Positions 20,281 through 41,143 of a stretch of DNA of 64,000 bases are shown here, piece by piece. Positions within the stretch are counted from its first letter, which is position 1. Each line of letters begins with the position of its first letter. Below the pieces are notes generated by a model. That model made no database searches. It saw nothing but the letters and a program-made list of their open reading frames with translations, and had not been told where the DNA came from. The stretch comes from Escherichia coli (lineage in GTDB: Bacteria > Pseudomonadota > Gammaproteobacteria > Enterobacterales > Enterobacteriaceae). The position numbers were made by a program, and so were the translations under genes. The DNA is taken from NCBI RefSeq assembly GCF_013122565.1, contig NZ_CP053258.1; one strand, written 5' to 3'.

Positions 20281-20342
20281 TTACTTATCTGGTTTCCCTT
20301 TTCTCATGGAGAGGGAAACCGAATAACACGCGAGGAGTATTG

Positions 20343-20558
20343 ATGGAATTCAATTGCCCAACCTGCCATAAACCTCTCGAACATCACGGCGAGACGGCTC
20401 ATTGCGTAACTTGCGACAAAGATTTCACCATCCAGGCACTTTGCCCTGACTGCCATCAGCCGCTACAGGTGTTAAAGGCTTGTGGCGCTGTGGACTATTT
20501 CTGCCAACATGGCCACGGATTAATTTCTAAAAAACGCGTTGAGTTTATTATTGCTTAA
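20343..20558 (+). CDS. yfgJ: Zinc-ribbon protein YfgJ
   Basis: 71 aa from ATG at 20343 with GAGGAG SD; CxxC...CxxC pairs. Confidence 0.85.
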   Translation: MEFNCPTCHKPLEHHGETAHCVTCDKDFTIQALCPDCHQPLQVLKACGAVDYFCQHGHGLISKKRVEFIIA

Positions 20559-20575
20559 TATCATCTGAATGTATG

Positions 20576-20610
20576 GTTTTATCATTTGTATTTAATATAT
20601 AAATGATAAA
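20576..20610. promoter_or_regulatory. Perfect 10-bp inverted repeat in AT-rich region upstream of sinH
   Basis: tttatcattt-N13-aaatgataaa. Confidence 0.3.
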
Positions 20611-20767
20611 GCCATCTCTTATTGGTTAAATCACTAGTACATGTGAGTGAAATCATTTTGATAAATTTTTAGGAATATATTTAGTTTTTCTGACGTGCCT
20701 TCCTGAATGTTCTGGCATAGAATATTAGAGCTTATTCATCAAATTATCATTGCCACAGGGAAAGTGC

Positions 20768-22942
20768 ATGCTGCGATGGAGTCGCTTTATAATGTTACTA
20801 TTTATCTCTGCTGCAACTCCTGCGGCAGAGATAAATAGTAAGCAAAATGAATCGTTACCTGATTTAGGCAGCCAGGCGGCTCAACAAGTAGAACAAACGG
20901 ATAAGGGTAAATCGTTAAAAGAGCGTGGAGCCGATTACGTCATCGATTCTGCTACGCAAGGGTTCGAAAACCTGACCCCCGAGGCGCTGGAATCTCAGGC
21001 CAGAAGCTATCTGCAAAGTCAAATCACCTCAACCGCGCAATCTTATATTGAAGAGACACTCTCTCCCTACGGTAAGGTCCGTTCGAATCTCTCTATTGGT
21101 CAAGGTGGCGATCTGGATGGTAGCTCCATCGATTATTTTGTTCCCTGGTATGATAATCAAACGACCGTTTATTTCAGTCAATTTTCTGCGCAACGAAAAG
21201 AGGACCGTACGATCGGGAATATCGGAATTGGAGCAAGACATAATTTCGATGAATGGCTTTTGGGTGGAAATATATTTTACGATTATGATTTCACCCGTGG
21301 GCATCGACGTTTAGGTTTGGGGACAGAGGCCTGGACCAATTATTTAAAATTTTCTGGCAACTATTATCATCCGCTCTCTGACTGGAAAGACTCTGAAGAT
21401 TTCGACTTTTATGAAGAGCGCCCTGCGCGCGGTTGGGATATTCGCGCTGAAGCCTGGTTACCTTCTTATCCGCAACTGGGGGGCAAAATTGTCTTCGAGC
21501 AATATTACGGTGATGAAGTCGCCCTTTTTGGTACGGATAATTTAGAGAAAGATCCCTATGCGGTGACGCTAGGACTGAATTATCAACCGGTACCGTTACT
21601 GACAGTTGGAACGGATTATAAAGCGGGGACAGGAGATAACAGCGATGTCAGCATTAATGCCACTCTTAATTATCAATTCGGCGTTCCGCTAAAAGATCAA
21701 CTCGACAGCAATAAAGTAAAAGCAGCCCACTCGTTGATGGGCAGTCGCCATGATTTTGTCGAGCGTAATAACTTTATCGTCCTGGAATATAAAGAGAAAG
21801 ACCCTCTGGATGTGACGTTGTGGCTGAAAGCGGATGCGACCAACGAGCACCCTGAGTGCGTCATTAAGGACACTCCAGAAGCGGCGATCGGGCTGGAAAA
21901 ATGTAAGTGGACCATTAACGCACTGATCAATCACCACTACAAAATTGTCGCTGCGTCATGGCAGGCGAAAAACAATGCCGCCCGCACGCTGGTGATGCCG
22001 GTCATCAAAGAAAATACCATCACTGAAGGCAACAACAACCACTGGAATCTGATACTGCCAGCCTGGCAGTACAGCTCTGACAAAGCCGAGCAGGAAAAAC
22101 TCAACACCTGGCGGGTACGGCTGGCGCTGGAAGATGAAAAGGGTAATCGGCAAAACTCCGGCCTGGTTGAGATCACCGTTCAGCAGGACCGTAAAATTGA
22201 GCTGACCGTCAATAACATTGCTGATGTGCCTGATGAGAATAACCACAGCCATGAAGCCAGCGCTCAGGCGGATGGCGTTGATGGTGTGGTCATGGACCTC
22301 GAGGTGACGGACAGTTTTGGCGATAACACGGACCGCAACGGTGATGCTCTGCCAGAAGATAATCTTGCACCGCAGCTCTACGACGCTCAGGACAAAAAAG
22401 TCACGCTAACCAATAAACCCTGCTCGACCGACAACCCCTGCGTGTTTATTGCCAAACAAGATAAAGAAAAGGGAACGGTAACCCTCTCCAGTACATTGCC
22501 AGGCGTTTTCCGCTGGAAAGCGAAAGCGGCTCCCTACGATGACAGTAACTATGTGGATGTCACGTTTATTGGATCTGATATCGGCGGGCTTAATGCTTTC
22601 ATTTACCGGCTTGGGGGAGCGAAGCCAGTCAATTTGATCGGCAATGATAAAGACCCCCTGCCGCTGGGCAACACGTACCGATTTGTGTTGTGGCGTGATG
22701 CCAACAAAGACGGCGTTTTTCAGCAGTCGGAAAAACTAACCGATGAAGAGATGACTCAGTACGACTACAAGTGGGAATTTACCGGCAAGAGCATCAATGG
22801 CGAAGTAGGTGCGCAGGCGAACACATCCAATGCAGACATTGTAATACCGGCGACCAACCGTGAAGCGGCGCAATCCTATGGTGCAAAAGTGGAAGATGGC
22901 TTGCAGGGTTACGGTTTACGCGTGCTGTACACCAAAAAATAA
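20768..22942 (+). CDS. sinH: Inverse autotransporter adhesin, intimin/invasin family (SinH-like)
   Basis: 724 aa from ATG at 20768 with AGGGA SD (track starts at 20750); signal peptide; N-terminal beta-barrel-like region; C-terminal passenger; gene absent at this site in K-12. Confidence 0.8.
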   Translation: MLRWSRFIMLLFISAATPAAEINSKQNESLPDLGSQAAQQVEQTDKGKSLKERGADYVIDSATQGFENLTPEALESQARSYLQSQITSTAQSYIEETLSPYGKVRSNLSIGQGGDLDGSSIDYFVPWYDNQTTVYFSQFSAQRKEDRTIGNIGIGARHNFDEWLLGGNIFYDYDFTRGHRRLGLGTEAWTNYLKFSGNYYHPLSDWKDSEDFDFYEERPARGWDIRAEAWLPSYPQLGGKIVFEQYYGDEVALFGTDNLEKDPYAVTLGLNYQPVPLLTVGTDYKAGTGDNSDVSINATLNYQFGVPLKDQLDSNKVKAAHSLMGSRHDFVERNNFIVLEYKEKDPLDVTLWLKADATNEHPECVIKDTPEAAIGLEKCKWTINALINHHYKIVAASWQAKNNAARTLVMPVIKENTITEGNNNHWNLILPAWQYSSDKAEQEKLNTWRVRLALEDEKGNRQNSGLVEITVQQDRKIELTVNNIADVPDENNHSHEASAQADGVDGVVMDLEVTDSFGDNTDRNGDALPEDNLAPQLYDAQDKKVTLTNKPCSTDNPCVFIAKQDKEKGTVTLSSTLPGVFRWKAKAAPYDDSNYVDVTFIGSDIGGLNAFIYRLGGAKPVNLIGNDKDPLPLGNTYRFVLWRDANKDGVFQQSEKLTDEEMTQYDYKWEFTGKSINGEVGAQANTSNADIVIPATNREAAQSYGAKVEDGLQGYGLRVLYTKK

Positions 22943-35302: not shown

Positions 35303-36880
35303 ATGACGGAAAACATTCATAAGCATCGCATCCTCATTCTGGACTTCGGTTCCCAGTATACTCAACTGGTTGCGCGCCGCGTGCGTGAGCTGGGCGTTTA
35401 CTGCGAACTGTGGGCGTGGGATGTGACAGAAGCACAAATTCGTGACTTCAATCCAAGCGGCATTATTCTTTCCGGCGGCCCGGAAAGCACCACCGAAGAA
35501 AACAGCCCGCGTGCGCCGCAGTATGTCTTTGAAGCAGGCGTACCGGTATTCGGCGTTTGCTATGGCATGCAGACCATGGCAATGCAGTTGGGCGGTCACG
35601 TTGAAGCCTCTAACGAACGTGAATTTGGCTACGCGCAGGTTGAAGTCGTAAACGACAGCGCACTGGTTCGCGGTATCGAAGATGCGCTGACCGCAGACGG
35701 TAAACCGCTGCTCGATGTCTGGATGAGCCACGGCGATAAAGTTACCGCTATCCCGTCCGACTTCGTCACCGTAGCCAGCACCGAAAGCTGCCCGTTTGCC
35801 ATTATGGCTAACGAAGAAAAACGCTTCTATGGCGTACAGTTCCACCCGGAAGTGACTCACACCCGCCAGGGTATGCGCATGCTGGAGCGTTTTGTGCGTG
35901 ATATCTGCCAGTGTGAAGCCCTGTGGACGCCAGCGAAAATTATCGACGATGCTGTAGCTCGCATCCGCGAGCAGGTAGGCGACGATAAAGTCATCCTCGG
36001 CCTCTCTGGTGGCGTGGATTCCTCCGTAACCGCAATGCTGCTGCACCGCGCTATCGGTAAAAATCTGACTTGCGTATTCGTCGACAACGGCCTGCTGCGT
36101 CTCAACGAAGCAGAGCAGGTTCTGGATATGTTTGGCGATCACTTTGGTCTGAACATTGTTCACGTTCCGGCAGAAGATCGCTTCCTGTCAGCGCTGGCTG
36201 GCGAAAACGATCCGGAAGCAAAACGTAAAATCATCGGTCGCGTTTTCGTTGAAGTATTCGATGAAGAAGCGCTGAAACTGGAAGACGTGAAGTGGCTGGC
36301 ACAGGGCACCATCTACCCTGACGTTATCGAATCTGCGGCGTCTGCAACCGGTAAAGCACACGTCATCAAATCTCACCACAACGTGGGCGGCCTGCCGAAA
36401 GAGATGAAGATGGGCCTGGTTGAACCGCTGAAAGAGCTGTTCAAAGACGAAGTGCGTAAGATTGGTCTGGAGCTGGGCCTGCCGTACGACATGCTGTACC
36501 GTCATCCGTTCCCGGGACCAGGCCTTGGCGTTCGTGTTCTGGGTGAAGTGAAGAAAGAGTACTGTGACCTGCTGCGCCGTGCTGACGCCATCTTCATTGA
36601 AGAACTGCGTAAAGCGGACCTGTACGACAAAGTCAGCCAGGCGTTCACCGTCTTCCTGCCAGTACGTTCCGTTGGCGTAATGGGCGATGGTCGTAAGTAT
36701 GACTGGGTTGTCTCTCTGCGTGCTGTCGAAACCATCGACTTTATGACCGCACACTGGGCGCATCTGCCGTACGATTTCCTCGGTCGCGTTTCCAACCGCA
36801 TTATCAATGAAGTGAACGGTATTTCTCGCGTGGTGTATGACATCAGCGGCAAGCCGCCAGCTACCATTGAGTGGGAATGA
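35303..36880 (+). CDS. guaA: GMP synthase (glutamine-hydrolysing)
   Basis: 525 aa. Confidence 0.97.
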
Positions 36881-36903
36881 TTTGACCCTGCACTATGAAT
36901 GAA

Positions 36904-36933
36904 CAAAACCCTCTGTTACTACAGAGGGTTTTT
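36904..36933. terminator. Bidirectional terminator between guaA (+) and yfgI (-)
   Basis: aaaaccctctgttactacagagggtttttt. Confidence 0.65.
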
Positions 36934-36972
36934 TATCTTCAAGAATTATAGGCTTGAAGTTACTAACATCGA

Positions 36973-37512
36973 TTAATTAAACCAGCTGTCCGATTTGTTC
37001 TCTTCTGCTTTGCCCACGCTTTTCATCAGATCGCGACCGCCTTCAGTCATATTTCTGTTGGCGTCAGCTTCAGATTGCACCACATCGGTTTGCGCAGCTT
37101 TGTGCTTCAGTTCCTGATCGATAAATTCGTTTTCGCGCTTAACGCGGGCTTCTTCTTTCGCCAGCGCCAGTTTTTGTTTCTGAATCTCTAAGCTGCGTAG
37201 CTCATCTTCATAACTTTGATCGCGTTTTTTGTCCGCAGTGGCTTCGGCGTCCAGTTTATCCTGACGAGCTTTCTTATTTGCCGCTGCCGTTGCCGCTCTT
37301 TTGTTAGCGGCGGCCTGGGCATTTGCGCGACGTTGCTTCTCTTGCTGGATTTCCCTGTTGCGCTCCGCGACCCATTCGTCATGCTGCCTTTGCTCTTCAT
37401 TTTTACCTTGCTGTTCCGCTTCTGCGACAGCAGAGAGTTGATCCTGCAATGATGAGGCGATAGCCGGATAGCTTAAGGAGGCTAAGATGGCGCAAAGAAA
37501 AACTTTCTTCAT
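36973..37512 (-). CDS. yfgI: Periplasmic coiled-coil protein YfgI
   Basis: 179 aa; signal peptide; Lys/Glu/Ala/Gln-rich. Confidence 0.85.
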   Translation of the reverse strand: MKKVFLCAILASLSYPAIASSLQDQLSAVAEAEQQGKNEEQRQHDEWVAERNREIQQEKQRRANAQAAANKRAATAAANKKARQDKLDAEATADKKRDQSYEDELRSLEIQKQKLALAKEEARVKRENEFIDQELKHKAAQTDVVQSEADANRNMTEGGRDLMKSVGKAEENKSDSWFN

Positions 37513-37527
37513 GACTCCTCCTGATTA

Positions 37528-38046
37528 TTAGCTCTTTTCAGGACATTTGGTATTTGGCTGAATACGCGTTTCGTTATACGTCGTGGTAATAACAACGGCT
37601 AAACCTGTCGTAAACTGGCACTCTTTACCCACCTGGGTGGAGGTATACACTTTGGTGCCTTCCTTATACGTTAAAGAAACACCTTCCACTAAGGTTTTAT
37701 CATTCACCATAGAACCCGCTGCCGCGCCTACAGCTCCGCCGCCAACTGCACCTGCCGTCGTTCCGGAATTGCTGCCAGACCCGACGTTGTGGCCGATAAC
37801 ACCGCCAGCGACTGCGCCAATAAGCGCGCCGAAGGCTTGTGCGTTCCGTTTATTTTGGGAGTTGTCTACGGCAACTTTTGCGGGAAGAATGGAAATAATA
37901 TTAACGGTTTTAGTTTCTTGTTTGGTATTCAGTTGATCGGTTTGATAAACATCGGCGGCATGATCGTCAGCATTTGACTGGCATCCTGCCAGAGTGAATG
38001 ACGCTAACATTGCCACAGGCAGAAGACATTTTTTAAATTTCATCAC
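37528..38046 (-). CDS. yfgH: Outer-membrane lipoprotein with glycine-zipper region
   Basis: 172 aa; lipobox LAGC; GxxxG-rich segment. Confidence 0.85.
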   Translation of the reverse strand: MMKFKKCLLPVAMLASFTLAGCQSNADDHAADVYQTDQLNTKQETKTVNIISILPAKVAVDNSQNKRNAQAFGALIGAVAGGVIGHNVGSGSNSGTTAGAVGGGAVGAAAGSMVNDKTLVEGVSLTYKEGTKVYTSTQVGKECQFTTGLAVVITTTYNETRIQPNTKCPEKS

Positions 38047-38356
38047 TATTCCTTGTTATACACATTACGAAAAATAAGACATTTAAGATCATCAAAAGAG
38101 GAAAGTAAATGTATTGCGTATAAAGGGATAGATTAAATTTATTAAAATTCACTCGGGGAATAATTTATAAAAATACATCATTACAACATATATATTAATT
38201 TTATATTTATTTCGCAGCCAAACAGGATAAACATCAGTCAGGACAAAGACGTAAAACTTAAGATGGAAGAATATCTGCCGCTTTGATAATCCCAAAGAGC
38301 AAAAGCATCCGACAGCGAAGTGCCGTTATGTTCTGTGAAAGTGGAGAAGGTAACCG

Positions 38357-38548
38357 CTAACGTTGTACCGGTGATTCGACGGAGAGTGTGGATTGCTGAG
38401 CTTCTTTTTTGCTCTGATGGTGCTGCCAGGCACCGACGGACGAGTAGATAAAACGGCCAAAGAAGAAGATAAAGCTGATGAGCAGTACGATACGGGTCAT
38501 GCGACTGTTAAATCGGTGTCGTTTTCGCATACTGGTTGCCTGACTCAC
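38357..38548 (-). CDS. yfgG: Small membrane protein YfgG
   Basis: 63 aa; one hydrophobic helix. Confidence 0.7.
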   Translation of the reverse strand: MSQATSMRKRHRFNSRMTRIVLLISFIFFFGRFIYSSVGAWQHHQSKKEAQQSTLSVESPVQR

Positions 38549-38899
38549 AAAAGGTTCCTTGAAGTATGTCCCACGCTGTGGACGGTACTTACATTAAGGC
38601 ACAACAGGACAAAATGGTCAATTCTTCGTTATGTAAAAAAGCGTCAGCGGATACATATTTTAATGTTATGGAAGTTAATTTAATTATTTACAATGATGAT
38701 GTAATAATGATGAATTAACATGATAAACGTAATAATTCATTAATCAGGGTTATTTTGTTTGATATATATCAATTGGAACTTTCATATGACACTTAGAATC
38801 AATGCTCTCTATAGTGATGAATAATCATCATTCGAAGTCAGGTGGGATGCCTGTCTGAATACACCTCCTTCAGGATGTGGGGGATTCTGCTGAGCATCT

Positions 38900-41143
38900 A
38901 TGAAACTGAATGCAACTTATATAAAAATACGTGATAAATGGTGGGGGCTTCCGCTGTTCCTGCCTTCTTTAATCTTGCCCATTTTCGCCCACATTAATAC
39001 TTTCGCGCATATTTCTTCCGGTGAGGTTTTTCTCTTTTATCTGCCTCTGGCACTGATGATCAGCATGATGATGTTTTTCAGCTGGGCGGCATTGCCAGGG
39101 ATCGCCTTAGGGATTTTTGTCCGCAAATATGCAGAGCTTGGTTTTTACGAAACGCTCTCATTAACGGCTAATTTTATTATCATTATCATTCTCTGTTGGG
39201 GTGGTTACAGGGTCTTTACTCCCCGGCGTAACAACGTTTCACATGGTGATACCCGTTTAATTTCCCAGCGTATATTCTGGCAGATTGTGTTTCCTGCAAC
39301 GCTGTTTCTGATACTTTTTCAGTTTGCTGCGTTTGTAGGATTACTGGCGAGCAGAGAAAATCTGGTCGGTGTCATGCCTTTTAACCTCGGGACTTTAATC
39401 AATTATCAGGCCTTACTGGTGGGTAATCTGATCGGTGTCCCGCTGTGTTACTTCATCATTCGGGTAGTGCGAAATCCATTTTATTTACGTAGCTATTATT
39501 CGCAATTAAAACAGCAGGTTGATGTCAAAGTCACCAAAAAAGAGTTCGCACTCTGGCTACTGGCATTAGGTGCTTTATTGTTGCTGTTATGCATGCCGTT
39601 AAATGAAAAAAGCACAATTTTTAGCACCAATTATACCTTGTCATTATTGCTGCCCCTGATGATGTGGGGAGCGATGCGCTATGGTTATAAGCTGATTTCA
39701 CTGCTCTGGGCGGTCGTGTTGATGATCAGCATCCACAGCTATCAAAATTACATTCCCATTTATCCTGGCTATACCACGCAGCTGACCATAACCTCCTCCA
39801 GTTATCTGGTATTCTCTTTTATTGTCAATTATATGGCTGTATTGGCAACCCGTCAGAGAGCGGTAGTCAGACGCATTCAGCGGCTTGCGTATGTGGACCC
39901 GGTGGTTCATCTGCCAAATGTTCGCGCACTGAATCGCGCGTTGCGTGATGCCCCCTGGTCTGCGCTTTGTTATTTACGCATCCCTGGCATGGAAATGCTG
40001 GTTAAGAACTATGGCATCATGCTGCGGATTCAATACAAGCAAAAACTTTCTCACTGGCTGTCACCCTTACTGGAACCGGGTGAAGATGTTTATCAGCTTT
40101 CGGGTAACGATCTCGCGCTGCGACTGAATACAGAATCGCACCAGGAGCGCATTACCGCACTGGATAGCCATCTCAAGCAATTTCGTTTCTTTTGGGATGG
40201 CATGCCGATGCAACCGCAGATTGGCGTCAGTTACTGCTATGTGCGCTCGCCAGTGAATCATATCTACCTGCTGCTGGGAGAGCTAAATACGGTCGCCGAA
40301 CTTTCCATCGTGACCAACGCCCCGGAAAATATGCAGCGTCGCGGGGCAATGTATTTGCAACGCGAATTGAAAGATAAAGTCGCGATGATGAATCGACTAC
40401 AGCAGGCGCTGGAACACAACCATTTTTTCCTGATGGCCCAGCCGATTACCGGTATGCGTGGTGATGTTTACCATGAAATTCTTCTGCGCATGAAAGGTGA
40501 GAATGATGAACTGATCAGCCCCGATAGCTTCTTGCCGGTCGCGCACGAATTTGGTTTATCGTCGAGTATCGACATGTGGGTCATTGAGCATACGCTGCAA
40601 TTTATGGCTGAAAACAGAGCGAAGATGCCCGCTCACCGTTTTGCTATTAATCTGTCTCCAACCTCGGTATGTCAGGCTCGTTTTCCTGTTGAAGTCAGTC
40701 AGTTGCTGGCTAAATATCAGATTGAAGCGTGGCAACTTATTTTTGAAGTCACCGAAAGTAATGCTCTGACCAATGTTAAGCAGGCGCAAATCACCTTGCA
40801 GCATCTTCAGGAATTAGGCTGCCAGATTGCGATTGATGATTTCGGCACCGGCTACGCCAGCTATGCGCGGCTTAAAAATGTGAATGCCGATCTGCTTAAA
40901 ATTGACGGCAGTTTTATCCGCAATATTGTGTCAAATAGTCTGGATTATCAGATAGTGGCATCGATTTGCCACCTGGCGCGAATGAAGAAAATGCTGGTAG
41001 TGGCAGAGTACGTTGAAAACGAAGAGATCCGCGAGGCGGTGCTCTCTTTGGGGATCGATTATATGCAGGGTTATCTTATTGGTAAGCCGCAACCGTTAAT
41101 TGATACGCTGAATGAAATCGAACCCATTCGCGAAAGTGCCTGA
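38900..41143 (+). CDS. pdeF: Cyclic-di-GMP phosphodiesterase PdeF (MASE1, degenerate GGDEF, EAL)
   Basis: 747 aa; multi-TM N-terminus; EAL-domain C-terminus. Confidence 0.9.
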   Translation: MKLNATYIKIRDKWWGLPLFLPSLILPIFAHINTFAHISSGEVFLFYLPLALMISMMMFFSWAALPGIALGIFVRKYAELGFYETLSLTANFIIIIILCWGGYRVFTPRRNNVSHGDTRLISQRIFWQIVFPATLFLILFQFAAFVGLLASRENLVGVMPFNLGTLINYQALLVGNLIGVPLCYFIIRVVRNPFYLRSYYSQLKQQVDVKVTKKEFALWLLALGALLLLLCMPLNEKSTIFSTNYTLSLLLPLMMWGAMRYGYKLISLLWAVVLMISIHSYQNYIPIYPGYTTQLTITSSSYLVFSFIVNYMAVLATRQRAVVRRIQRLAYVDPVVHLPNVRALNRALRDAPWSALCYLRIPGMEMLVKNYGIMLRIQYKQKLSHWLSPLLEPGEDVYQLSGNDLALRLNTESHQERITALDSHLKQFRFFWDGMPMQPQIGVSYCYVRSPVNHIYLLLGELNTVAELSIVTNAPENMQRRGAMYLQRELKDKVAMMNRLQQALEHNHFFLMAQPITGMRGDVYHEILLRMKGENDELISPDSFLPVAHEFGLSSSIDMWVIEHTLQFMAENRAKMPAHRFAINLSPTSVCQARFPVEVSQLLAKYQIEAWQLIFEVTESNALTNVKQAQITLQHLQELGCQIAIDDFGTGYASYARLKNVNADLLKIDGSFIRNIVSNSLDYQIVASICHLARMKKMLVVAEYVENEEIREAVLSLGIDYMQGYLIGKPQPLIDTLNEIEPIRESA

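Follow-up and report, generated by a model that had tools for sequence, protein, structure and literature searches.

The two AT-rich tracts that flank yfgG in the Escherichia coli genome are very probably ordinary bacterial control DNA, made up of promoters, leaders and a terminator, in which nearly every conserved base can be assigned and in which control through a leader RNA may have its place. Most of these elements are already known from published work; the one modest lead is the fold of the pdeF leader RNA, which is new, undescribed and conserved. The original prediction for this DNA had offered two possibilities, unannotated small RNAs or an extended regulatory region for pdeF, and of these the second is upheld and the first is not.

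Throughout, the window is the whole 64-kb stretch of DNA that was analysed. Gene order around the tracts is guaA (+), yfgI (-), yfgH (-, 37528-38046), yfgG (-, 38357-38548), pdeF (+, 38900-41143) and ppx (-), and both tracts have exactly the lengths first given for them (Table 1). They are also as AT-rich as had been claimed, with the GC contents of Table 1 set against a window mean of 0.516 (sd 0.05, 200-bp windows) and with cores of lowest GC at 38047-38270 (0.263, yfgH-yfgG) and 38650-38835 (0.237, yfgG-pdeF). A GC content of 0.30 or less was found in 0.55% of 200-bp windows, at four places in the 64 kb, and the tracts flanking yfgG are two of these. The other two low-GC places lie where colinearity between the window and K-12 breaks down. 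A repeat search turned up nothing beyond short chance repeats rich in AT, and in particular no REP, IS or tandem structure. The yfgG-pdeF tract was aligned from 15 genomes found through protein and from 31 non-redundant lineages; across genera it measures 341-354 bp and holds a dozen blocks conserved in at least five genera. Conservation falls exactly on the FNR box, the hexamers of the promoters and the blocks in the leader; the spacers and the AT core vary. The yfgH-yfgG tract, for its part, lies where the conserved yfgG-pdeF pair meets a genus-variable cassette, which in Escherichia is yfgHI; S. Typhimurium, Kluyvera, Enterobacter and Phytobacter lack yfgHI and carry other genes at the same place.

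Table 1. Features of the two tracts flanking yfgG, in window coordinates
Feature	Positions	Strand	Details
yfgH-yfgG intergenic tract	38047..38356		310 bp, GC 0.319
yfgH 5' UTR (putative)	38044..38075	-	SD AAGGAA at 38054..38049
yfgH promoter (putative)	38081..38109	-	-35 TTTACT (38109..38104), 17-nt spacer, -10 TTAAAT (38086..38081)
Rho read-through-stop stretch	38149..38264	-	poorly conserved, AT-rich; PMC7815308 supplement 2
yfgG 3' UTR	38265..38356	-	92 nt; Term-seq 3' end, PMC7815308 supplement 1
yfgG terminator hairpin	38274..38303	-	12-bp stem, one bulge, then tail UAUUCUUCC ending 38265
yfgG-pdeF divergent intergenic tract	38549..38899		351 bp, GC 0.345
yfgG 5' UTR	38549..38585	-	~37 nt, SD AAGGA; TSS 2627275 (U00096.2), PMC4447067
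50-codon ORF	38566..38718	+	PGAP hypothetical protein WP_000017552.1; antisense across yfgG promoter and TSS
yfgG promoter	38593..38621	-	-35 TTGACC (38621..38616), 17-nt spacer, extended -10 TGcCTTAAT (38601..38593)
Conserved block upstream of yfgG -35	38631..38669		ATGTAAAA..CGTCAG...AATGTTAT
AT-rich core	38670..38755		~24% GC; sequence unconserved across genera, length conserved
FNR box	38759..38772	+	TTGATATATATCAA; perfect consensus match TTGAT-N4-ATCAA, centred at -41.5
pdeF -10	38794..38799	+	TAGAAT (PMC3718329); TSS ~38807
pdeF 5' leader	38807..38899	+	~93 nt
Hairpin SL1	38813..38832	+	5'-proximal, 8-bp stem
Invariant leader block	38839..38856	+	CAGGUKGGAUGCCUGYCU, 18 nt
Hairpin SL3	38864..38884	+	CCUCC/GGGGG stem, loop UUCAGGAUGU
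Weak SD and start-proximal block	38892..38899	+	GAG and nearly invariant GCAUCU directly 5' of AUG; 3' strand of predicted P1

The regulatory region suggested for pdeF proved to consist of an FNR promoter and a conserved leader, and the suggestion had overlooked the divergent yfgG promoter in the same tract. The perfect FNR box occurs once in the window against 0.07 matches expected, and it is conserved in all lineages aligned, as is the pdeF -10 in the form TA.AAT. Box and -10 are together retained from Escherichia to Salmonella-like, Kluyvera, Enterobacter and Phytobacter sequences, and they are arranged as in class II FNR promoters, with the box near -41.5, the -10 correctly spaced and no -35 needed. 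Indeed, pdeF (yfgF) is the published case itself (Lacey et al. 2010, as cited in PMC3718329): its FNR dependence, the box position and the -10 have all been published (PMC3718329), and its FNR- and anaerobiosis-dependent expression has been reported (PMC3718329, PMC4207228). Our promoter does not differ from the published one, and what we add are window coordinates and conservation. The start site of pdeF would lie at ~38807, a position derived from the published -41.5 value, promoter geometry and conservation. From this promoter, pdeF would be turned on without oxygen.

The tract can accordingly be pictured as back-to-back yfgG and pdeF promoters, with start sites that would be ~220 bp apart. 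The hexamers of the yfgG promoter are nearly invariant in the 31 lineages and its spacer is variable; identical hexamers are given in PMC3946193, which also reports RpoD holoenzyme promoters facing both ways in the yfgF/yfgG spacer, and ChIP has placed a peak of sigma-S RNA polymerase at the yfgG promoter (PMC4447067). With its extended -10, this promoter would be bound by both sigma-70 and sigma-S RNA polymerase. The yfgG start site was placed in the window with a v2-to-v3 coordinate offset that we take to be 1978. Upstream of its -35 lies a further conserved block, presumably a candidate factor-binding site. Consensus scans for Fur, ArcA, H-NS, RcsB, CRP, NarL, sigma-E and IHF returned weak matches of the kind typical of AT-rich DNA, the best being ArcA-like (12/16, 38705-38720), and none was assigned; sites for NikR, RcnR, CpxR and PhoP were rejected on inspection by eye, both in this block and at the yfgH promoter.

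Between the two promoters lies the AT-rich core. The GC content of the cores in the two tracts, 0.24-0.26 against the window mean of 0.516, fits what is expected of an H-NS-bound spacer; matches to the 10-bp high-affinity H-NS motif are weak (8/10). In a genomic SELEX table the yfgF/yfgG spacer carries an 'HNS' flag, a single one (PMC3946193). In the arrangement we propose, a core reportedly bound by H-NS would separate the yfgG and pdeF promoters, its length kept and its sequence free. The same flag also fits a rival account, in which the tracts are AT-rich chiefly as a leftover of horizontally acquired DNA that H-NS silences, with function limited to minimal promoters. This account is favoured too by the variable yfgHI cassette, missing from the taxa named above, and by the cores at 38147-38270 and 38670-38755, which lack sequence conservation. 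However, the yfgG-pdeF tract is shared between lineages, and its constant length and conserved blocks in at least five genera argue for selection on layout rather than for a neutral leftover. We therefore regard the leftover explanation as unlikely.

The yfgH-yfgG tract can be read along the minus strand as the yfgG 3' UTR, an intrinsic terminator ending at 38265, a Rho stop at ~38149 and finally the yfgH promoter. A published Term-seq 3' end at MG1655 2629573(+) corresponds to window position 38265 (window = 38548 - (v3 - 2629290)) and was recorded in all three growth conditions (PMC7815308). It is preceded by the elements of an intrinsic terminator, a stem-loop and a U-rich tail within which the RNA ends, the hairpin standing 9 nt upstream of the mapped end; among Escherichia species the hairpin arms are conserved and the loop is variable. 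Beyond it, a Rho-termination position at 2629689(+), window 38149, has a Rho score of 8.5 (p = 1e-48; PMC7815308). The arrangement resembles the class in that study in which an intrinsic terminator is backed up by Rho in a long 3' UTR, here with a BCM-sensitive region ~116 nt past the mapped end. The yfgG terminator itself is weak, because just 5 of the 9 nt in its tail are U and its stem is A/U-rich and bulged. The 3' UTR, the terminator, the Rho zone and the yfgH promoter in this tract had all gone unmentioned in the original prediction.

With these elements in place, neither tract would need a separate small-RNA gene as an explanation. It is true that both tracts are long and carry no annotated genes, that the 3' end 92 nt past yfgG is robust in all three conditions and of the 'orphan' class, and that 3' UTRs give rise to many small RNAs; one or both tracts might thus encode a free-standing small RNA, or the yfgG 3' UTR might be processed into a trans-acting one. 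Against this, an E-value search of Rfam 15 over 36800-39400 (E <= 10) gave only chance matches to eukaryotic families (DLEU2_3, snoRNAs, a plastid leader), all with E >= 0.83. Promoter-like and terminator-like sites were at or below shuffle expectation in our scan, whose strict -10 rule missed both minus-strand promoters, and we found no orphan promoter-terminator pair, the only mapped 3' end being yfgG's own. Three aerobic Term-seq data sets have no 3' end in the pdeF-yfgG gap (2628939-2629289; PMC7815308), and a Cappable-seq TSS supplement has no entry for these genes. Moreover, promoters and leaders account for all conserved blocks, the yfgG 3' UTR is unconserved beyond Escherichia and has no strong Hfq-type U-tail, and no RNA gene is entered for the tracts in the curated MG1655 record. 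A small RNA in either form is, in our judgement, very unlikely.

For yfgH, all 10 sequences compared share the same putative -35 and -10 hexamers, even those from orthologues whose YfgH identity is down to 82-85%, and the spacer between them is unconserved. Geometry and conservation would set the start of transcription at ~38075. The annotated GTG start codon (38046) is GTA in other genera, which makes the ATG at 38043 the likelier start, and the annotation probably needs correction from GTG 38046 to ATG 38043. As placed here, the promoter (TTTACT-17-TTAAAT) would be a weak, stress-inducible one with a short leader; yfgH has been described as nearly silent in LB and strongly induced under outer-membrane stress (bioRxiv 10.64898/2025.12.22.696046). 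A FlhDC genomic-SELEX peak has been assigned to the yfgG>yfgH spacer, with a motif coordinate that is unlike MG1655 numbering and is probably that of W3110.

The tracts had further been described as holding no convincing ORF. This is right in substance, as no coding signature was found, with the one qualification that PGAP annotates a 50-aa ORF in the yfgG-pdeF tract. Were this ORF a real small-protein gene, the tract would be partly coding. It has an ATG start, is open in all Escherichia alleles examined, and its product, WP_000017552.1, is annotated in many E. coli genomes, thousands of them in RefSeq; the curated MG1655 record, by contrast, has nothing there. Among 10 Escherichia alleles the variable sites number 11/9/11 at codon positions 1/2/3, with no third-position excess, and in Kluyvera, Enterobacter and Phytobacter the ATG is lost (e.g. 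to ATA), while weak tblastn matches in the same genera coincide with conserved yfgG promoter DNA, to which, and to the yfgG start site, the ORF is antisense. These observations make a real gene extremely unlikely, and the hypothetical protein is probably spurious.

The pdeF leader matches no known RNA family in Rfam, and our covariance model of it, R1, has a sole match in the window, at 38831-38902. Its parts differ in how they are conserved. At the place of SL1, 22 of the 31 lineages have a hairpin, the sequences of which are unrelated. The 18-nt block, by contrast, is invariant in at least five genera, a count made on the 15 protein-found genomes only, since the metagenome sequences had been fetched using this block as key. 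It can fold on itself into a hairpin, SL2, with a CAGG/CCUG stem and the loop UGGGAUG, in which GGAUG is exposed; or else the GGAUGC within the block (38845-38850) can form a predicted helix, P1, with positions 38894-38899. RNAalifold on a MAFFT alignment recovered SL2 alone, with SL3 out of register, and SL3 emerged on re-alignment with R1.

Covariation supports SL3: its score is 0.154 against 0.067 +/- 0.011 for shuffles, none of 500 of which reached 0.154, and one pair covaries across genera as AU15/UA14/UG10. Within the SL3 loop, GGA is present in 42 of 42 distinct sequences; as GGA in a short loop is common by chance (38% of dinucleotide shuffles), it counts as evidence only through being conserved. 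P1 can form in 41 of the 42 sequences, all four one-sided changes being wobble pairs; its mean pair probability over the 31 lineages is 0.68, and it is predicted to dominate in most of them. SL2 and P1 are both invariant, so that covariation supports neither, and P1 stands as a prediction. The folding energy of the E. coli leader is unremarkable (z = -0.45).

Taken at face value, the two pairings would give the leader two states. In one, the GCAUCU before the AUG would pair with GGAUGC ~45 nt upstream and so close the pdeF ribosome binding site in a long helix capped by SL3; in the other, the upstream block would close on itself as SL2 and show GGAUG in its loop. The closed state recalls helices that sequester a ribosome binding site, as in RNA thermometers and in the CsrA-activated ymdA leader (PMC7492729), where a distal segment pairs with 6-8 nt 5' of the start. 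From this layout we infer that pdeF would be under translational control, possibly by CsrA.

The most likely mechanism for such control would be CsrA or another loop-reading factor, because both hairpin loops (SL2 UGGGAUG, SL3 UUCAGGAUGU) show GGA in the form that CsrA recognises. SL2 and SL3 would present these GGAs ~25-28 nt apart, and the sites, at 38845-38847 and 38873-38875, are within dimer-bridging distance. One CsrA dimer can bridge sites about 10-63 nt apart. Citrobacter-like sequences read CUACAGGAUGUG where E. coli reads UUCAGGAUGU, and are near the CsrA consensus from SELEX, reportedly RUACARGGAUGU. Two loop GGAs ahead of a gene for a c-di-GMP enzyme also liken the leader to the GGDEF leaders of ycdT/dgcT and ydeH/dgcZ, which are CsrA-controlled according to Jonas et al. 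2008, as cited in PMC5635695. Unlike in most CsrA-repressed leaders, neither site overlaps the SD: no GGA overlaps the pdeF SD or start codon, the SD-like GAG/GGG is at -8..-6, and the closest GGA in a loop lies 25 nt ahead of the AUG. The predicted geometry would fit activation by helix opening just as well as repression.

Our tentative model is that the ~70 nt at the 3' side of the leader (38831-38902) are a so far undescribed, two-state cis-regulatory RNA that spans genera of Enterobacteriaceae, closed by P1 or refolded into SL2/SL3, which CsrA would open and so activate pdeF; we put it forward as a possibility, with the balance against it. CsrA, or another factor reading the loops, would set PdeF translation once FNR has activated transcription. 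Full-text searches found no PdeF-CsrA link in the literature, and the supplements of CsrA CLIP-seq papers on E. coli and Salmonella mention neither yfgF nor pdeF. This absence speaks only weakly against CsrA, as pdeF is silent in the aerobic cultures used. A leader that works independently of CsrA is likewise possible and likewise short of probable. It could be an RBS-sequestering switch such as a thermosensor, and P1, with no protein involved, is the prevailing predicted fold in most lineages; yet a plain anti-SD helix leaves unexplained why the GGA of the SL3 loop persists when both the stem and the other loop bases change. A base-pairing small RNA could instead target the leader, for 18 strictly invariant nucleotides point more to a site of pairing or recognition than to a simple hairpin, but no partner small RNA is known. 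Or the block could hold a mini-ORF, AUG-CCU-GUC-UGA (38847-38858), preceded by SD-like AGGUGG/AGGUUGG; this has three codons in Escherichia, Kluyvera and Citrobacter-like sequences but is not conserved as such, since in Enterobacter-like and other lineages it extends over 13-17 codons or continues in frame into pdeF.

Together, these results amount first of all to an annotation clean-up, in that two conspicuous AT-rich 'empty' tracts of a well-studied genome need no hidden gene. Loosely known elements, among them the yfgG terminator and the conserved promoter of yfgH, gain base-level positions, and the start codon of yfgH gains a probable correction; the promoter position is useful now, with YfgH under study as an outer-membrane stress protein. 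The deep conservation of the pdeF leader suggests that PdeF output is gated post-transcriptionally in addition to its control by FNR. If CsrA reads this leader, a phosphodiesterase would be added to the c-di-GMP enzymes under Csr control, and, should the two-state model be true, the Csr system, FNR oxygen sensing and c-di-GMP breakdown would be joined in one leader.

The two gaps flanking yfgG have exactly the sizes claimed for them in the original prediction, and their GC contents (0.319 for the yfgH-yfgG gap, tract 1; 0.345 for the yfgG-pdeF gap, tract 2) compare with a window mean of 0.516 (sd 0.05). GC this low is more extreme than expected by chance; a 200-bp GC of <=0.30 is reached at four places in 64 kb, two of which are the tracts. 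The other two (1431-1630 and 20481-20770) lie where long ORFs are lacking (951-1781 and 20281-20749), and colinearity of the window with MG1655 breaks down at both. Across the 1.1 kb queried, the locus is 99.1% identical to K-12 (top match strain PT62, 99.6%). The curated MG1655 record annotates no feature in either tract, a repeat search found no repeat families in them, and their promoter-like and terminator-like patterns do not exceed the counts in shuffles.

Genes and sequence features of the locus, in window coordinates
Feature	Position	Strand	Remarks
guaA		+	
yfgI		-	
yfgH	37528-38046	-	
Tract 1	38047-38356		310 bp; core GC 0.263
Putative yfgH -10 TTAAAT	38086..38081	-	invariant, including orthologues at 82-85% YfgH identity
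Putative yfgH -35 TTTACT	38109..38104	-	invariant, including the same orthologues
yfgG terminator hairpin	38303..38274	-	12-bp, bulged; tail UAUUCUUCC; mapped end 9 nt later
yfgG	38357-38548	-	
Tract 2	38549-38899		351 bp; core GC 0.237
yfgG extended -10 TGcCTTAAT	38601..38593	-	conserved block, 31 lineages
yfgG -35 TTGACC	38621..38616	-	conserved block, 31 lineages
FNR box TTGATATATATCAA	38759-38772	+	perfect consensus match
pdeF -10 TAGAAT	38794-38799	+	
SL1 (predicted hairpin)	38813-38832	+	5'-proximal; 22/31 lineages, sequences unrelated
SL2 (predicted hairpin, CAGG/CCUG)	38839-38856	+	fold of invariant block; GGAUG in loop
SL3 (predicted hairpin)	38864-38884	+	stem with compensatory changes between lineages
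pdeF (yfgF)	38900-41143	+	
ppx		-	

Much of tract 2 has been described before. RpoD-holoenzyme genomic SELEX placed divergent promoters in this spacer, with hexamers TTGACC-17-CTTAAT for yfgG, and flagged it as H-NS-bound (PMC3946193); sigma-S RNA polymerase ChIP-seq found a peak here, and the same study cites a yfgG start site at window ~38585, 37 nt ahead of the start codon (PMC4447067). A PgrR SELEX listing also includes the spacer. The class II FNR-dependent pdeF promoter, with its FNR box centred at -41.5, is likewise published (PMC3718329); its box is the one perfect FNR box in 64 kb, as compared to 0.07 expected, and the position of the -10 hexamer puts the pdeF start site at ~38807, giving a leader of about 93 nt.

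Orthologous loci came from two sources: a search with the PdeF protein, which gave Escherichia spp., Enterobacter asburiae, Phytobacter and Kluyvera, and a DNA key in metagenomes, which added others, Salmonella-like and Citrobacter-like ones among them. The divergent layout and a spacer length of 341-354 bp are kept across the compared loci, and conservation within tract 2 is limited to discrete blocks (31 lineages, <90% mutual identity): on the yfgG side the promoter hexamers, with an unconserved 17-nt spacer between them, and the SD; on the pdeF side the FNR box, the -10 and portions of the leader. The AT-rich core (38670-38755) is kept in length, not in sequence. The proposal of an extended pdeF regulatory region was thus right as to the FNR promoter and the conserved leader, and incomplete in that the same spacer holds the yfgG promoter. 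Upstream of the yfgG -35, a further cross-genus block (38631-38669) reads ATGTAAAA..CGTCAG....AATGTTAT; no known regulator consensus we compared fits it, and its Kluyvera version holds a perfect palindrome, ACATTAATTAATGT. Because nickel and cobalt tolerance requires yfgG, a metal-responsive factor is a candidate partner worth testing.

Within the leader, the 18-nt block CAGGUKGGAUGCCUGYCU (38839-38856) is identical in 15/15 protein-found genomes. PdeF identity among these falls as low as 57%, a divergence that saturates neutral positions. Farther downstream, the SL3 stem varies in compensated form (CCCUU/AAGGG, CCCAC/GUGGG, CCCU/AGGG, CCCA/UGGG; CCUACA/UGUGGG vs CCUGCA/UGCGGG), and one of its base pairs occurs as AU15/UA14/UG10. 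After re-alignment with R1, a covariance model of the leader that we built, SL3 covariation was 0.154 as compared to 0.067 +/- 0.011 in shuffles (0/500 attained this value) and 0.101 in the best slid control. Its loop carries GGA in all 42 distinct sequences, any such hairpin arising in 38% of dinucleotide shuffles. Folding of the whole E. coli leader is not unusual (z = -0.45).

The invariant block may pair in two ways. Besides folding as SL2, its GGAUGC (38845-38850) is complementary to a nearly invariant GCAUCU (38894-38899) abutting the AUG, a predicted helix, P1, that would close the ribosome binding site. P1 is intact in 41/42 sequences, its one-sided changes are wobble pairs in 4/4 cases, and its mean predicted pair probability over the 31 lineages is 0.68, as compared to 0.08 for SL2; since both strands are invariant, covariation neither proves nor disproves it. 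We infer that pdeF translation may be gated through opening and closing of the ribosome binding site, and the likeliest reader of both GGA loops would be CsrA. The CsrA SELEX consensus is RUACARGGAUGU, and Citrobacter-like leaders come near it, reading CUACAGGAUGUG. A literature search found no PdeF-CsrA link, and pdeF is missing from the published CsrA CLIP-seq supplements of E. coli and Salmonella, an absence to be expected because PdeF is below detection under aerobic growth (PMC5635695). The CsrA reading is tentative, and somewhat doubtful.

Several smaller features accompany the pdeF promoter and leader. The invariant block contains a mini-ORF, AUG-CCU-GUC-UGA (38847-38858, +), preceded by an SD-like AGGUGG; Escherichia, most Kluyvera and Citrobacter-like sequences keep it at three codons, and Enterobacter-like ones have a longer version or one that is in frame with pdeF. 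Two copies of a 21-nt direct repeat on the + strand, ATAATGATGAATTAACATGAT (38704-38724) and ATAGTGATGAATAATCATCAT (38811-38831), 81% identical and weakly Fur-box-like (12/19), flank the promoter at about -93 and +15 and were found in Escherichia only. A perfect sigma-E -35 motif, GGAACTT (38775-38781, +), with TCAAT 17 nt later, overlaps the FNR-dependent promoter and is not kept beyond Escherichia. The PdeF tblastn match is broken into different-frame pieces in several assemblies, Kluyvera genomosp. 3 and some metagenome contigs among them (L018, ~4300; L125, L129, L180), reflecting either frameshifted pseudogenes or assembly errors.

Could the tracts encode other products? PGAP calls WP_000017552.1, a hypothetical protein of 50 aa, at 38566-38718(+) in E. 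coli genomes. We reject it as a gene: variable sites among 10 Escherichia alleles fall 11/9/11 on codon positions 1/2/3, its ATG is absent in other genera, and the weak tblastn similarity found there falls on conserved yfgG promoter DNA. Lying antisense over that promoter and carrying no coding signature, it is probably a propagated false call. The suggestion of unannotated small RNAs found no support, a permissive Rfam search of 36800-39400 returning only chance matches to eukaryotic families. In tract 1, an 'orphan' 3' end at MG1655 2629573(+), seen under 3/3 growth conditions, and a Rho-termination region at 2629689(+) (Rho score 8.5, p = 1e-48) are published (PMC7815308); converted from MG1655 coordinates, the two lie on the minus strand of the window at 38265 and 38149, respectively. 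The mapped end lies 92 nt past the yfgG stop codon, behind a hairpin and tail that form a weak intrinsic terminator, with arms conserved and loop variable among Escherichia species. Beyond Escherichia this 3' UTR is unconserved, and Kluyvera and Citrobacter-like loci have a different hairpin there, which speaks against a small RNA conserved in the 3' UTR. That 18-bp hairpin, AAGATTCCTTACCGGATGG...CCATCCGGTAAGGGATTT, found at seven loci 20-90 nt downstream of yfgG and absent in Escherichia, is probably a strong terminator, possibly bidirectional. Term-seq also maps a 3' end within the yfgG coding sequence (MG1655 2629424, 38414(-)), which could reflect premature termination or processing.

The guaA-yfgG interval (36881-38356) is a variable cassette, as seen at five loci: Escherichia and a few relatives have yfgHI here, Enterobacter asburiae an MFS transporter and a LysR regulator, and Kluyvera a membrane protein of 292 aa. 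S. Typhimurium is reported to have no yfgHI orthologues (PMC11619404), and in strain PT62 yfgI adjoins a DUF262 gene instead of guaA. Conserved and accessory DNA thus meet in tract 1, consistent with its low GC and poor mid-tract conservation. The 100 bp adjoining yfgH are ~90% conserved within Escherichia; TTTACT-17-TTAAAT, with an unconserved spacer and followed by a short conserved leader with SD AAGGAA, we take from its conservation as the putative yfgH promoter, starting at ~38075. This assignment fits the few copies of YfgH per cell in LB and its strong induction under outer-membrane stress (bioRxiv 10.64898/2025.12.22.696046). FlhDC SELEX assigned one peak to the yfgG-yfgH spacer. The GTG annotated as the yfgH start (38046) reads GTA in other-genus orthologues, while the ATG one codon on (38043) never varies and is probably the true start.

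Most of what the two tracts contain had been published: the FNR promoter, the yfgG promoter with its sigma-S RNA polymerase peak, the H-NS flag, the 3' end of yfgG and the Rho-termination region. New here are the yfgH promoter assignment, the rejection of the PGAP ORF and, as the only undescribed part of tract 2, a structured pdeF leader, deeply conserved and missing from Rfam. As RBS-sequestering leaders and CsrA control of c-di-GMP enzymes are already well known, this leader is a modest lead and no surprise.
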